The notes: generated by a model from the sequence alone, not told the origin. Counted from the stretch's first letter, positions 58,111-63,161 are shown. The stretch is DNA of 64,000 nucleotides from an uncultured bacterium (GCA_963801165.1 CAWDDT010000004.1:96001-160000); one strand, 5' to 3'. Numbers and translations are program-made.

Positions 58111-61100
58111 CTACCCGTCGACTACCCGGCCCACGATCATGAACAGGCGGGCCGACCCGTCCGTGATGGGATAGGTGGCGGCTCCACCGAGGCTGACGTC
58201 CTGCTTGTAGGACGTGCCGACGACGACGACGGCGTCCGTCCCGACGGCAGGAGTCGTGGTCCACCACCAGCCGTCGGTCCGGCCGAACAGCACGATGTCC
58301 TCGACCTCGCTCCAAACGTTGCCGTCGGCGGACAGATAGACCGCAGCCGGTTGCCCCCGGGTGCTGTCGAAGCCGAACGCGGCCAGGCCGAGCGGACCAA
58401 CAGAGATGTCACTCGCCGCCACGATACGGTCGTCGGCCGTGTGCAACTGTCGCCACACGGTTCCGTCATCGGATGTCCAGACACTGAGCCCGTAGTCACA
58501 TTCGGCGCCGGCACTCTCATCCGCGCAGTTCAGCTCCAGGCTCTGCCCGACGACAAAGTAGCGGTCGCGGTCGCGCAGCGCGTTCCCGGAGAAGGCCACG
58601 TTGTCGAGGGCCACGGACTCGGTGACGAGGGTCCAGATCTGACCATCGCGGGTCGACCACATCGACGTCGCACCGGTCGCCGGGTCGTTTACGAAGGCGA
58701 CAAAGCCATCGTCGGTCGCCTCGAATTGCACGCCCGCTTCGATGGTCAGGGGCGGTGGTGTCACCCCAACAGTCACGTGGAAATCCGGGTCGATCATGTA
58801 GAGAGCAGTCGAGCCTCCGGCTTCGTACCGGTTGAAGGTCGCCACGAAGACGAGTATCCGGTCATTGCCGGCGACGCTGCTGAACGCAGAGTTTGCAGGA
58901 TCTTGGGCGGGAATGTCGATGTGTGTCCACTGATCGCCGTCGAAGTACACCATGCCCAGACCCGCTTCGGTCCACTGGTTGGCGACGATCCCATCCTGGA
59001 ACGCACTAACGCCCCACATGTTCCCTACCTCGCCGGGCAACGGCGGCTGCTCCCAATCAACGCCGTCGCCCGAGGTGAACAGAATTGGGTCGGACGCACC
59101 GTTCGTCGTGGTGGTGTAGCCGCTGAGGACAAAACCGAGCTTCGACCAAACGACCGACGGCTGTGTCACCGTGTCGAATCCGTCGGGTTCGAGCCAGCTC
59201 CACTCCATATCCCCGAGTACCGTTGGGACGGTCGCAGTCTCGCCCGGTTGGAGCAGGCGGTCGAGATAATGCCGGGCGGCGTCGAGGTGTTGCTGCGCCG
59301 ATGCCGCGGTGAAAGCGACCCCACCCTCAATCTGTGGCCCAAAGGCTTCCCACATCGCCACCGACGGGTCGACATCGACCGTCGCGCTACTCAGCACGCC
59401 ATCGCGGATCACGGCCCGCAGTCCACCCTGACCATCGCTGCCTGAAAACAAGCTCAGCAGATCGGAGTTCACCGTGTAAGCACAGGACACGTCGACATGA
59501 TCCGACGAACCGAGCGATACCGCGGTCGTGCACCCGTCGACCGCAATCGACGCGTTGGTGCCCGCCAGATAGTCGATCGTCCCTGCAACGCGGTCGGTGA
59601 CCAGGTTGCCCTGATCGTCCCACCAACCCTGGTCCTCGTGTGCCAGGGAGGGAACCTCGAAGGGCGCATGTGGTGGCGAGACCTGTCCTGGAAGCAAATC
59701 CACGAGCGCGCCGGCATCGTGCCCGGACAGGGCTTCGAGGTACGCACGAACCTGATCCTCGGCTGCTGCCGCCGTCGGGTCCGTGTCCCATCGGCCGCGC
59801 CACGTCCCGGTCTCGGCCCCCGACGCTGTTGCCACCAGCGCATCACCGTGGGTGTCGATCGCAAACGAATCGGGGTACGTGCCCCGCAGTGTCTTTCGGC
59901 TCCAATTCACGCCTCCGTCGTCGGTGAGCCAGAGCTCGGTCGCGGCCGTTCCTCCGGTGCTGCCGATGATCGCCATCCTGGCGCCCTCGGCGGCGATTCG
60001 GGAGGGGAGGAACATACCCCGCACGATCACCGACTCATCGATCCCGACGTACATGTCGGCTCGGGGGTCGCCCTCGATCTCTATGCCGCTGGAGGAGATG
60101 CTGTCAACCTTGAAGGTGCCGACGTCGGTCTCAATGGTGGTTCCCACCGTCACCTGTTCCGGGGTGTTGTTGACCGCCAGAACGGCGCTCGGGTTGTCGC
60201 CGGGGTTGGTCGTGGTAACCGAGAACGAGACGCTGGTCTCGTCGAGGTGGGGCTCCCGATCACCAAGACGGCTCCAGTTGGCACCGTCGGTGGATTCCCA
60301 GAGCGCCGGCTCGAGCGGCGCATCCTGTGTGGTGGTCTTGCCGAGCGCCACCAGCCGGTCACCGTCCACCACGAGATCGTCGATGGCATCGACTGCGTCA
60401 TCGATGCCGACCAACTGCCAGTCCATCCCGTCCGTGGAGCGGTAGATGGCGCCGTGGGTCAAGCCTGCGGTCGTTGTCGCCCCGTAGGCGTAGTAGGCGG
60501 TCCCGTCGGTGGCCAGCCCTAGTAGCAGCGCGGTGTCGAGGCCGGTGAGCGTGTCGTGACGGCTCCACTCCACGCCGTCGGCAGAGGTCCATCCGATCCA
60601 CCCGGCGCCGTCGCCGGTGATCGTCAACAGCTGCGGTCCGGCTACGAGACCGATGGCGTTCTGCGGGTCCGGCCCGAGCAAACCTCGGTAGTGCCAGGCT
60701 TCTGCGGGCCGTTGCGATGTCCAGATACCGACGCTGTCCTCGACGCTGCCGAGGGCCACCATGTCGCCGTCCCAGCTGACGATATGGTCGATGCTTGACT
60801 TTCCGACCGGTCTCACGGTGGGGACCTTCTGCCACGTCGTCGCCGAACCGGCCCACCACACCTGCGCCCCTCTCGGCACCGAACCGCCGGCGACGTAGAT
60901 GCCTCCCGCCCGCTCCAGGTCGCGTATCTGCGCCGCGTCGTCGACGGGTGCCGACTCCCACTCGAGCATGTCGTCCGTCGCGGTGCGTAGATCCAGGTTC
61001 CTCGCGTCGAGTGCTGCGATGGGTGGCACCCGGGTGGTAGTCGGCGCGGCGGTCGTGGCTGTGGGGCGGGTCACCACGACGAACACGGCGAGTAGCCCGA

Positions 61101-61263
61101 GCAGGACCGTCACCGGTAGTAGCCAGCGAGGGCGAGGATTGAGATTGGGTGGCGGAGCGGTGGCGTTGTCGTTGGCAGGGAGAACGCGGATAGCCGGTTC
61201 GCTCTCATGACGAGCCAAGCTATTCCCTCCGTTTCTGCGCCGTTTGTTCGAACTCTCCGGCAT
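58111..61263 (-). CDS. Large membrane-anchored protein with Asp-box/BNR-like repeats
   Basis: About 1050 aa; one TM; eight WxSxDGxxW-type repeats in two blocks around a central domain. Confidence 0.75.
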   Translation of the reverse strand: MPESSNKRRRNGGNSLARHESEPAIRVLPANDNATAPPPNLNPRPRWLLPVTVLLGLLAVFVVVTRPTATTAAPTTTRVPPIAALDARNLDLRTATDDMLEWESAPVDDAAQIRDLERAGGIYVAGGSVPRGAQVWWAGSATTWQKVPTVRPVGKSSIDHIVSWDGDMVALGSVEDSVGIWTSQRPAEAWHYRGLLGPDPQNAIGLVAGPQLLTITGDGAGWIGWTSADGVEWSRHDTLTGLDTALLLGLATDGTAYYAYGATTTAGLTHGAIYRSTDGMDWQLVGIDDAVDAIDDLVVDGDRLVALGKTTTQDAPLEPALWESTDGANWSRLGDREPHLDETSVSFSVTTTNPGDNPSAVLAVNNTPEQVTVGTTIETDVGTFKVDSISSSGIEIEGDPRADMYVGIDESVIVRGMFLPSRIAAEGARMAIIGSTGGTAATELWLTDDGGVNWSRKTLRGTYPDSFAIDTHGDALVATASGAETGTWRGRWDTDPTAAAAEDQVRAYLEALSGHDAGALVDLLPGQVSPPHAPFEVPSLAHEDQGWWDDQGNLVTDRVAGTIDYLAGTNASIAVDGCTTAVSLGSSDHVDVSCAYTVNSDLLSLFSGSDGQGGLRAVIRDGVLSSATVDVDPSVAMWEAFGPQIEGGVAFTAASAQQHLDAARHYLDRLLQPGETATVPTVLGDMEWSWLEPDGFDTVTQPSVVWSKLGFVLSGYTTTTNGASDPILFTSGDGVDWEQPPLPGEVGNMWGVSAFQDGIVANQWTEAGLGMVYFDGDQWTHIDIPAQDPANSAFSSVAGNDRILVFVATFNRYEAGGSTALYMIDPDFHVTVGVTPPPLTIEAGVQFEATDDGFVAFVNDPATGATSMWSTRDGQIWTLVTESVALDNVAFSGNALRDRDRYFVVGQSLELNCADESAGAECDYGLSVWTSDDGTVWRQLHTADDRIVAASDISVGPLGLAAFGFDSTRGQPAAVYLSADGNVWSEVEDIVLFGRTDGWWWTTTPAVGTDAVVVVGTSYKQDVSLGGAATYPITDGSARLFMIVGRVVDG

Positions 61264-61305
61264 ACTCCCAACGTTACGCAATGGACACCCGTTCCGGTTC
61301 CGCGC

Positions 61306-61342
61306 TTGCCCGGCCGCGGCACCAGCGTTATCGTGGCCCGCA
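61306..61342 (+). promoter_or_regulatory. Promoter for the leader peptide (near-leaderless)
   Basis: TTGCCC(61306-61311)-17 nt-TATCGT(61329-61334); ATG 8 nt downstream with no SD. Confidence 0.55.
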
Positions 61343-61414
61343 ATGAAGCAGACCTCCTTCTATTTCGTGTATTTCTTTGCCGGGCCCTCGGCCCGGGCAG
61401 AGGGTGCGCGCTAG
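61343..61414 (+). CDS. Phe/Tyr attenuator leader peptide (23 aa, MKQTSFYFVYFFAGPSARAEGAR)
   Basis: 4 Phe + 2 Tyr within 7 consecutive codons, directly upstream of a terminator and an aromatic-pathway gene. Confidence 0.88.
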   Translation: MKQTSFYFVYFFAGPSARAEGAR

Positions 61415-61438
61415 AAGCGAGGCAACGCCAACCCACAG

Positions 61439-61468
61439 CCCGAAGCCGAGAGAGGCTTCGGGTTTTTT
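61439..61468 (+). terminator. Attenuator intrinsic terminator
   Basis: CCCGAAGCC-GAGAGA-GGCTTCGGG-TTTTTT; its 5' arm can alternatively pair with 61394-61405. Confidence 0.9.
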
Positions 61469-61500
61469 CGTGCCTGGAGCCACCGGCACAGGAGACGATC

Positions 61501-62562
61501 ATGACCGACAGACCCATTCTCAAGAGCCACCGGCGACCCGAGGTCGAGACCAGCATCATCTCGGTCGGCAACGTCAGGTTCGGTGACGGCTCGTATCCGG
61601 TCATCGCCGGCCCTACCGCCGTCGAGAGCGAGGAACAGATCGTCGCCACCGCCGTGTCGCTCGCCGAGTCCGGCGCATCGATGCTGCGTTCGGGGACCTT
61701 CCGAGCCGAGCATTCGCCGTACACCTTCAAAGGCATGGGTCGGGAGGGCCTGTGGCTTCTGGAGAAGGCCGGCCACGCCGCCGGCCTGCCAACGGTCACA
61801 GAAGTGATCGAGCCGGGTCACGTCGAGCTAGTCGCGGATCACGCCGACATGCTCGAGATCGGTCCCGACAACATGCAGAACTTCGTGCTGCTACGGGACG
61901 CGGGGAAGACGAACCGGCCTGTGCTGTTGCATCGCGGGGCTTCGGCGACGGTCGACGAGTGGCTGATGGCCGCCGAATACATCCTCGCCGAGGGCAACGA
62001 CAACGTTGTTCTGTGCGAGCGGGGGAGCCGTGGTTTCGACCCGCGCACCTCCGATACGATCGACATCTCGGTCGTTCCCGTGGTCCAGCGTCTTTCCCAC
62101 CTGCCGGTCGTCATTGATCCTGCGCCCGCCACGGGCGGGGCCGACCTCCTCGCCCCCCTGGCCCTGGCCGGGCGGTCGGTGGGAGCCGATGGGCTGGTCA
62201 TCGCCTCGCACCTGAACCCCGGCGCATCGCTGGCGGGCAACGGTAGCCAGCTCGATCTCGGCGAGTTCGCCAAGCTGATGGATCAGCTGGGGATCCCATC
62301 TTTGCGGGACGAGATCGACCGGGTGGACCGGCAGTTGATCAAGCTGATTGCTCGCCGGCTGCACAGCTCGGTCGAGATCGCCAAGATCAAGGCGTCCAAG
62401 GGTCTCGACATGCGGTCTCCGGACAGGGAAGCGGAGCTCATCGAGGAGGCGGTGCATGACGGCGAGGCGTTCGGAGTCGGCCGCGAGTACATCGAGGCGC
62501 TGATGACGATCGTCCTCGACCACAGCCGTGCCGCCCAGCAGCGTGCGGTGGATTCGCGGTGA
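61501..62562 (+). CDS. Degenerate type I-beta DAHP synthase domain fused to a C-terminal AroQ chorismate mutase
   Basis: CAGGAG RBS; DAHPS scaffold (IAGP.AVES, SPY.F.G.G, NMQN, EWLMAAEYI, LCERG) with active-site substitutions; AroQ LRDEIDRVD...ARR...KIK...DRE...S...Q. Confidence 0.88.
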   Translation: MTDRPILKSHRRPEVETSIISVGNVRFGDGSYPVIAGPTAVESEEQIVATAVSLAESGASMLRSGTFRAEHSPYTFKGMGREGLWLLEKAGHAAGLPTVTEVIEPGHVELVADHADMLEIGPDNMQNFVLLRDAGKTNRPVLLHRGASATVDEWLMAAEYILAEGNDNVVLCERGSRGFDPRTSDTIDISVVPVVQRLSHLPVVIDPAPATGGADLLAPLALAGRSVGADGLVIASHLNPGASLAGNGSQLDLGEFAKLMDQLGIPSLRDEIDRVDRQLIKLIARRLHSSVEIAKIKASKGLDMRSPDREAELIEEAVHDGEAFGVGREYIEALMTIVLDHSRAAQQRAVDSR

Positions 62563-63161
62563 CCCTTGATGTTGTAATCGGTGACGACGAGCTGCCCCGC
62601 TGCTGGTGGGGAGACAGCCCGGATATCTATCGCATCTACCACGACGATGAGTGGGGGCGTCCGGTCGACGACGACCACACGCTGTTCGAGAAGCTGTGTC
62701 TGGAAGGGTTCCAGGCCGGGCTGAGCTGGCTGACGATCTTGAAGCGAAGGGAAGGGTTCCGGGCCGCCTTTCACGGCTTCGACATCGACCGTGTCGCTGC
62801 GATGACCGAGCGTGACGTTGCCCGGCTGGTCCAGGACACCGGAATCATCCGGCACCGGGGCAAGATCGAGTCGACCATCAACAATGCGCAACGCGCCCAG
62901 GAGGTGCGTGACGAACTCGGCTCGCTCGGGGCGTTGGTGTGGTCGTATGAGCCGGTTGGCCCGACCACGGTGCGTGAGTCGGTGACGCCCGAGTCGAATG
63001 CGCTGGCCAGGGATCTCAAGAAGCGCGGCTTCACCTTTGTCGGCCCCACAACGGTCTACGCGTTCATGCAAGCCATGGGCGTCGTCAACGACCACCTCGC
63101 CGGCTGCCACGCTCGGGAGACGGTCGATGAGGCCCGGGCAGGGTTCGTGCGGCCGGCGTAG
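62559..63161 (+). CDS. tag: DNA-3-methyladenine glycosylase I
   Basis: RCWW..YHDDEWG, LEGFQAGLSW, IIRHRGKI, FVGPTT, NDH..C. Confidence 0.94.
   Translation: MTLDVVIGDDELPRCWWGDSPDIYRIYHDDEWGRPVDDDHTLFEKLCLEGFQAGLSWLTILKRREGFRAAFHGFDIDRVAAMTERDVARLVQDTGIIRHRGKIESTINNAQRAQEVRDELGSLGALVWSYEPVGPTTVRESVTPESNALARDLKKRGFTFVGPTTVYAFMQAMGVVNDHLAGCHARETVDEARAGFVRPA

Follow-up and report, generated by a model that had tools for sequence, protein, structure and literature searches.

The one leader peptide of a 3-deoxy-D-arabino-heptulosonate 7-phosphate (DAHP) synthase gene that our literature search returned is that of aroR-aroF in Corynebacterium glutamicum. The study of that attenuator is reportedly the one by Neshat et al. 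2014 (J Biotechnol 190:55). In this system a Phe-Tyr-Phe leader and an attenuator precede the DAHP synthase gene (Mentz et al. 2013, PMC4046766; PMC11802643) and, going by the accessible portions of these articles, Phe limitation relieves the attenuation while the availability of Tyr has no effect on transcription (PMC11802643). Here we describe a predicted leader-peptide attenuator in a 64,000-nucleotide (nt) stretch of DNA from an uncultured bacterium (GCA_963801165.1, CAWDDT010000004.1:96001-160000; the whole stretch is called the window, and plain coordinates count from its first letter), which precedes the gene for a type I-beta DAHP synthase with a C-terminal chorismate mutase (CM) domain (DAHPS-CM hereafter). 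On the strength of its sequence and comparative features we regard it as very probable that the element is a transcription attenuator, in which translation of the leader is predicted to set termination before the DAHPS-CM gene. Like aroR-aroF, it is an actinobacterial aromatic leader that, together with an attenuator, precedes the gene of a DAHP synthase. Unlike aroR-aroF, it has six or more aromatic codons rather than three, a leaderless-looking start, a different lineage as its host and, as its target, an I-beta enzyme fused to CM, the aroF product being of the I-alpha class; the likeness to aroR that can be stated is a functional one.

The pheL-pheA and pheM-pheST attenuators of Escherichia coli offer a second point of comparison (PMC11802643, in its accessible portion). 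The element shares with these a run of Phe codons, the 1:2 / 2:3 / 3:4 pairing logic, and the control of a CM-containing enzyme and of pheS. However, the E. coli leaders possess a Shine-Dalgarno (SD) sequence and are Phe-only, whereas the leader described here adds Tyr, controls a DAHP synthase and is predicted to be leaderless. A preliminary description, made from the sequence of the window alone, had recognized the architecture of the E. coli pheL and trpL attenuators in it, and the corresponding hairpin logic is indeed found. Leaderless leader peptides are themselves known in actinobacteria: mycobacteria have poly-Cys leaderless upstream open reading frames (uORFs), which are not known to have a canonical terminator, and the ilvB leader of C. 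glutamicum is said to have been found by Morbach et al. 2000 to be translated without a ribosome-binding site. The predicted arrangement in the window resembles these in being a short SD-less open reading frame (ORF) at the 5' end of a transcript before amino-acid genes, and differs from them in the amino acids and target genes concerned.

A comparative-genomic study of actinobacterial leader peptides with terminators deals with trp, trpS, leuS, ilvB and cys (Seliverstov et al. 2005, PMC1262725); its abstract contains neither a Phe/Tyr nor a DAHP synthase element and does not name the Acidimicrobiia, whereas the element described here has both of these features. Our literature search returned no publication joining Acidimicrobiia with a leader peptide. 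The preliminary description had listed actinobacterial attenuators for Trp, Ile/Leu/Val and Cys and thereby missed aroR-aroF, for which reason it overrated the novelty of the element. Precedents exist for every feature, namely for attenuation by a leader peptide, for an aromatic leader in front of a DAHP synthase gene and for leaderless actinobacterial leader ORFs; what is new is the lineage and the enzyme architecture, and the novelty is modest. The mechanism is the textbook one, and the element leaves the understanding of attenuation unchanged. It does show, at the level of sequence, how the synthesis of aromatic amino acids may be regulated in a large order of actinobacteria that is mostly uncultured. 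It also represents an uncatalogued RNA family, of which 54 members have been aligned and for which a covariance model is in hand that could join annotation pipelines. An Rfam scan of positions 60800-62000, with E values up to 10, recovered no relevant family, including that of the Phe leader (named Phe_leader in Rfam), and its two matches, mir-1292 and CC3552, were at chance level and on the opposite strand.

The leader ORF, its target gene and the RNA structures between them

The following features of the locus are needed for the argument.

61306-61311 (+): predicted -35 hexamer TTGCCC, 17 nt before the -10 box
61329-61334 (+): predicted -10 box TATCGT (pattern TANNNT), 8 nt 5' of the leader ATG
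61343-61414 (+): leader ORF MKQTSFYFVYFFAGPSARAEGAR, 23 codons from the ATG at 61343, plus the stop codon TAG at 61412-61414
61358-61378 (+): control codons TTC TAT TTC GTG TAT TTC TTT, read from the sequence
61353-61386 (+): segment 1, forming the 5' side of the 1:2 helix and containing the control codons and CCGGGCC (61380-61386); from minimum-free-energy structures
61390-61422 (+): segment 2, forming the 3' side of the 1:2 helix, with GGCCCGG (61390-61396), CGGGCAGAGGGT and the stop codon; from sequence and fold
61431-61442 (+): segment 3, the antiterminator 3' strand ACCCACAGCCCG, overlapping the terminator 5' arm
61437-61468 (+): intrinsic terminator, segments 3:4; from a terminator scan
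61473-61481 (+): segment 5, CCTGGAGCC, which nearly repeats the 5' arm of the terminator and lies just 3' of the T-tract
61490-61494 (+): SD sequence AGGAG of the structural gene
61501-62562 (+): gene for DAHPS-CM, 353 residues; from Pfam and NCBIfam

The leader ORF lies exactly where the preliminary description had placed it, 86 nt before the structural gene; ORFs as small as this are of the type that gene callers miss, and this one is now flagged. Its codons 6-12 read F Y F V Y F F, that is, six Phe or Tyr (F/Y) codons in seven. The genome is 4.55 Mb in size with 64% G+C, and a census of all its short ORFs (8-45 residues, from every ATG or GTG start on both strands) yielded 101,208 entries, exactly one of which, this leader, attains at least six F/Y codons in any seven. 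Four further entries reach five, and the maximum is between zero and two in 100,352 of them.

The product of the structural gene combines a DAHP synthase domain (PF00793, residues 24-259, E value 1.2e-56) with an AroQ-type CM domain (PF01817, CM_2, residues 268-347, E value 3.1e-18), and it scores 304.6 bits against the NCBIfam model for the bifunctional DAHP synthase/chorismate mutase (NF009239, cut-off 279). The earlier proposal of control at the chorismate mutase branch point was thus right as to the CM domain and too narrow as to the gene, which also encodes the DAHP synthase and so includes the entry to the pathway. As the two activities reside in one polypeptide, control would act on pathway entry and branch point together.

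The 135-nt leader region folds with -65.3 kcal/mol (z = -5.0), and none of 200 shuffled sequences was as stable. The hairpin originally noted after the control codons, CCGGGCC (61380-61386) with the loop CTC and GGCCCGG (61390-61396), is present at that position, and in the minimum-free-energy fold it is only the end of a much longer 1:2 helix, in which the stretch with the Phe and Tyr codons (61353-61386) pairs with 61390-61422. The antiterminator had been described as a pairing of CGGGCAGAGGGT (61394-61405) with ACCCACAGCCCG; its coordinates and pairing hold, but the wording was slightly generous, since 10 of the 12 positions form standard pairs and two are A.A mismatches. This pairing excludes both the terminator, with which it overlaps at 61437-61442, and the tip hairpin, with which it overlaps at 61394-61396. 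The terminator itself consists of CCCGAAGCC (61439-61447), the loop GAGAGA, GGCTTCGGG (61454-61462) and six T residues (61463-61468), and is situated 33 nt before the DAHPS-CM gene. Its 9-bp stem and T6 tail were confirmed as previously given, as was the CCCG that it has in common with the antiterminator, and the terminator scan lengthens the stem to 11 pairs (61437-61464).

Conservation of the element and evidence for translation of the leader

Full-length relatives of the DAHPS-CM protein were found at 28 loci in 12 families of the same order, with 44-100% identity; one of these loci (L026) is broken into pieces. An F/Y-rich uORF, an ACCGGGC...GCCCGGG hairpin and a terminator are present upstream in all 28. 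The two best matches that lack the CM domain (L029 and L030) have coding sequence upstream and no leader. A covariance model built from the 28 orthologous loci (model R1) matches 100 of 151 sampled genomes of the order, and 66 of the 110 high-quality ones. By family, the matches amount to 18/18 genomes in f10, 8/8 in f8, 16/18 in f6, 16/18 in f12, 6/7 in f5, 6/7 in f7, 10/14 in f11, 10/19 in f1, 6/19 in f3, 3/18 in f9, and 0/2 in each of f2 and f4.

At the level of the class, 18 of 151 sampled genomes match the model, and 16 of the 18 are inside the order. Both remaining class-level matches were rejected, one being a terminator after a tRNA-like gene (L048) and the other a bare terminator without a leader (L046). 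Seven matches were obtained at the level of the phylum, one of which (L133) was left out; two (L131 and L135) are real aromatic leaders, two (L130 and L134) were dismissed as terminators after tRNA-like genes, and two (L132 and L136) as having neither a leader nor a relevant gene. A profile search of genome contigs with the protein alignment gave, among the matches listed, mostly distant DAHP synthases, and among these matches the RNA motif occurs in two of 79 loci (L051 and L052), in addition to one weak match of 21 bits. The nearest named metagenome-assembled genomes among the matches listed are labelled Actinomycetes (75% identity) and Acidimicrobiia (53%), and both carry the element. Judging from these sequence comparisons, the element is conserved, and its stems covary, across one order of Acidimicrobiia-like actinobacteria.

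Covariation was assessed in two alignments, one of 28 sequences made with MAFFT and one of 54 sequences fitted to the model, the latter being biased toward the modelled structure by construction. In the former, 78.7% of the cells of the 1:2 helix and terminator are paired, against 32-47% when the partners are slid, and in the latter 87.1%, against 30-51%. The helices of segment 1 are paired in 78.8-86.9% across the orthologs (30-51% when slid). Double-sided changes occur in 19 pairs of the larger alignment, as opposed to 10.0 in shuffles, and none of 500 shuffles equals this number. The terminator cells are paired in 94.4% (28 sequences) and 95.7% (54 sequences), one terminator pair being compensatory (GC 14 and AU 13 in the smaller alignment, GC 37 and AU 16 in the larger), and a GC-rich stem directly followed by a T-run is kept in all 28 orthologs. 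RNAalifold independently recovers the tip hairpin and the terminator. The core of the antiterminator, CGGG:CCCG, is invariant, and the neighbouring pair covaries (CG 19, UA 6, UG 2 and other 1 in 28 sequences; CG 24, UA 12, UG 2 and other 16 in 54). The preliminary description had suggested a search for F/Y-rich uORFs and covarying stems in front of orthologs; they proved to be conserved in all 28 examined, and in the 54 model-aligned copies besides.

Upstream of the leader, a TANNNT box precedes the uORF start by 6-10 nt (mode 8) in 28/28 orthologs, and a TTG is found in the -35 region in 23/28. At positions -18 to -4 an SD-like 4-mer is absent from all 28 uORFs, as against its presence in 27 of the 28 main genes. 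The spacing of the box and the lack of an SD-like element back the earlier suggestion of a probably leaderless peptide; the transcript is likely leaderless or nearly so, with its predicted 5' end at or beside the AUG. We also considered whether the terminator might serve the 3' end of an upstream gene; this was rejected, as the ORF at 58111-61281 is on the opposite strand and divergent from the leader. This divergent ORF (-) encodes 1056 residues without a Pfam match, and its 5' end adjoins the predicted leader promoter.

The 54th row of the larger alignment is incomplete, and codon statistics were gathered on the 53 readable leaders, every one of which has the ORF. Over the eight codons up to a conserved Phe codon, the combined share of Phe and Tyr is 61.6% in frame 0, as compared with 2.4% and 19.1% in the other frames. 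This control region has no in-frame stop in any leader, and in all 53 the conserved Phe is encoded by the eleventh or twelfth codon, which fixes the distance between the start and the hairpin. Phe accounts for 27.5% and Tyr for 15.4% of the 612 leader codons; over 1,236 long ORFs of the genome the shares are 3.1% and 2.2%. The rarer synonymous codons are over-represented in the leaders (TTT 45% versus 16%, TAT 43% versus 24%). An in-frame stop precedes the terminator in 52/53 leaders, in or just past segment 2, the exception being L027.

These figures bear on a different interpretation, namely that of a structured non-coding leader, riboswitch-like or bound by a protein, in which the ORF is a by-product of the U-rich helix arm. 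In its favour, the motif CCCGGGYNGAGG is kept at the nucleotide level and yet is read in a different frame in L017, L022 and L028, so that the 3' half of the ORF is evidently conserved as RNA and not as peptide. Nevertheless, the frame-specific enrichment of Phe and Tyr, the stop-free control codons, the placement of the stop codon in or just after segment 2, the start codon at a fixed distance after the -10 box in 28/28 and the lack of an Rfam match speak against a non-coding leader, and we consider it highly improbable.

The predicted switch and the amino acids it would sense

In the proposed attenuator, transcription would start at the AUG or a few bases from it, and translation would begin with a ribosome loading at the transcript's 5' end. 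As long as tRNA-Phe and tRNA-Tyr in their charged form are in ample supply, the ribosome would reach the UAG and cover segment 2, whereupon 3:4 would form and transcription would terminate; were the leader to go untranslated, 1:2 would form with the same outcome. When Phe-tRNA, and probably Tyr-tRNA too, is scarce, the ribosome would stall at codons 6-12 and 1:2 would open. Segment 2, thereby freed, would pair with segment 3 ahead of the synthesis of segment 4, and the polymerase would read into the gene.

Folding with ribosome-footprint masks, which the preliminary description had put forward as a check, gives the expected switch in the 28 sequences, where nascent refers to a transcript that stops short of segment 4. 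In the nascent RNA the terminator 5' arm is paired upstream in 28/28 when the mask covers the last Phe codon, and in 28/28 and 27/28 when it is placed two or four codons before that codon, respectively. With the mask at the stop codon, upstream pairing of the 5' arm (at least 4 nt) occurs in only 7/27 and is weak (0 to -6 kcal/mol), and the terminator forms in 27/27 full-length RNAs. It likewise forms in 28/28 free full-length RNAs.

Several observations count against the attenuator or parts of it. When the full-length RNA is folded thermodynamically with a ribosome stalled on it, the terminator nevertheless prevails in 21/28, and in the untranslated nascent RNA upstream pairing already occupies the terminator 5' arm in 19/28; for these reasons the model needs kinetic, co-transcriptional folding, as textbook attenuators do. 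Outside its 5-bp core, which in the window joins 61394-61398 to 61438-61442, the antiterminator is paired in only 69.9-72.2% in a fixed register, and the covarying pair is broken in 16 of the 54 copies, most of these showing a one-base-shifted CCGGG:CCCGG core (as judged by eye and not counted). A strict sigma-70 scan found no promoter at this location, and the promoter prediction consequently rests on the looser actinobacterial TANNNT pattern. The leader of L027 (genome G030) has no stop codon before the terminator, and that of L021 has no Tyr codon. To these may be added the indifference of C. glutamicum aroR to Tyr. The L027 leader is one base shorter in segment 2 and its ORF extends to the start of the structural gene; this variant could be real or an assembly error.

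The uORF and hairpins might instead mainly control translation or mRNA stability, for example through refolding around segment 5 and the SD sequence. Segment 5 is conserved, and its pairing with the terminator 3' arm is found in 88.9% of cells (28 sequences) and 91.0% (54 sequences), against 30-56% when slid, with changes that are mostly one-sided and of the G-U type. Moreover, the T-tracts are imperfect in many orthologs, and freeing segment 4 increases the predicted accessibility of the SD sequence by over 0.1 in eight of the 24 orthologs folded. However, it falls in four and is unchanged in 12, so that this comparison is mixed, and in the window itself it changes from 0.36 to 0.46. The GC-rich stem and T-run of all 28 orthologs, together with the perfect T6 of the window, also argue against control mainly at this later level, which appears quite unlikely to us. 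Segment 5 cannot influence the termination decision, as it is transcribed after it.

A closer competitor retains the attenuator and restricts its response to Phe. In this reading, which we hold possible but doubtful, Tyr codons would be tolerated since UAY suits the 5' side of the 1:2 helix, rich in U as it is, or would be too few or too well supplied for ribosomes to stall at them. Transcription of C. glutamicum aroR, the one studied relative of this kind, which rises on Phe limitation and is indifferent to Tyr (PMC11802643, accessible portion), is in line with such a restriction. So are the excess of Phe over Tyr codons (means of 3.2 and 1.8 per leader), the Tyr-less leader of L021, and the identity of the codon adjoining the hairpin, which is mostly Phe (TTT/TTC), with Tyr (TAC/TAT) in several rows. 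On the other hand, Tyr codons occur in 52/53 DAHPS-CM leaders, two or more of them in 36, compared with 3/10 leaders before pheS genes that share the same RNA chassis (see below), and the rarer codon TAT is over-represented. Furthermore, the masks placed two or four codons earlier, which fall on Tyr in the leader of the window and on other residues elsewhere, keep the antiterminator. Trp codons are absent from the 612 codons of the DAHPS-CM leaders and present in leaders before DAHP synthases without CM, a difference that speaks for selection on codon content. Of the dual Phe/Tyr sensing originally claimed, the codon content stands, and Tyr-tRNA sensing is likely on this sequence evidence; it is a point that we infer, as aroR is unaffected by Tyr supply. 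The codon mix fits the enzyme: DAHPS-CM supplies the branch that leads to Phe and Tyr, and codons for these two amino acids, but never for Trp, make up the aromatic content of the leader.

Sister copies, variant leaders and neighbouring genes

A second copy of the RNA chassis is present in the same genome (L032; G000:C6:171884-172023, +; 44 bits, E value 2e-7), where it precedes pheS (TIGR00468, 313 bits). Its leader, MTSIARRRFAFTGPGARARGAS, has Phe codons only and begins with a GTG, 8 nt downstream of TACCGT. In relatives, the second copies that were retrieved are likewise found before pheS-like genes in 9/9 cases, the N-termini having been judged by reading, and the ten pheS leaders contain Phe in every case and Tyr in three.

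Trp-containing leaders were observed before DAHP synthases of other kinds. In family f12, L047 has MNIAWFSADYFFGPSGSK (W-F...Y-F-F) before an I-alpha DAHP synthase (TIGR00034), and L050 is similar. Elsewhere in the phylum, L131 and L135 have MQRDFGFWFAYFGPGPG and MERTYRYWFFYFGPGPA, with the motifs F-G-F-W-F-A-Y-F and Y-R-Y-W-F-F-Y-F, before I-beta DAHP synthases that possess an N-terminal domain. The enzymes behind all four of these leaders are without a CM domain. In the genome of the window itself, no aromatic leader was found upstream of tyrS, of the prephenate dehydratase gene or of the second DAHP synthase gene. This second DAHP synthase (C9:488976-490013; 345 residues with an N-terminal extension) is directly followed by a prephenate-dehydrogenase/tyrA-like gene (together G000:C9:488976-491045, +).

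It is conceivable, though we regard it as a tentative and rather unlikely extension, that one leaderless chassis has been reused order-wide, with its leader codons tuned to each enzyme and with segment 5 as a second layer of control. The tuning in that scheme, to which we give equally little weight, would be Phe only for pheS, Phe and Tyr but never Trp for DAHPS-CM, and Trp, Phe and Tyr for stand-alone DAHP synthases. If this were true, segment 5 would act on read-through transcripts, for instance by holding them in the anti-terminated fold or by gating their translation, something that textbook attenuators do not have. The pairs of pheS and DAHPS-CM leaders, with the Trp variants on CM-less enzymes, offer a natural comparison for asking whether leader codons are tuned to the branch served.

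Downstream of the DAHPS-CM gene, a methyladenine glycosylase gene (62559-63161, +; PF03352, E value 2.2e-69) has a GTG start that overlaps the DAHPS-CM stop by 4 nt. It is probably co-transcribed, and would hence be under the same attenuator.

Other short leaders were seen in the same genome. A leaderless-looking Cys leader with six consecutive Cys codons, MKYALAAAACCCCCCDSTMPRG (L033; G000:C5:39527-39595, +), is followed by a strong terminator and then by a cysteine-synthase-like gene. Two further short leaders, each accompanied by a TANNNT box and a terminator, are located at G000:C11:110129-110167 (-) and G000:C11:28770-28838 (+); MTSTLYWWCSQR precedes a gene with an N-terminus matching tryptophan-tRNA ligase, and MNNVTSTRMMCMASNEPCGFVM precedes an O-acetylhomoserine sulfhydrylase-like gene. 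Leaderless leader-peptide attenuation appears to be in wide use in this organism. Among the leaders observed in this genome is a Met leader.

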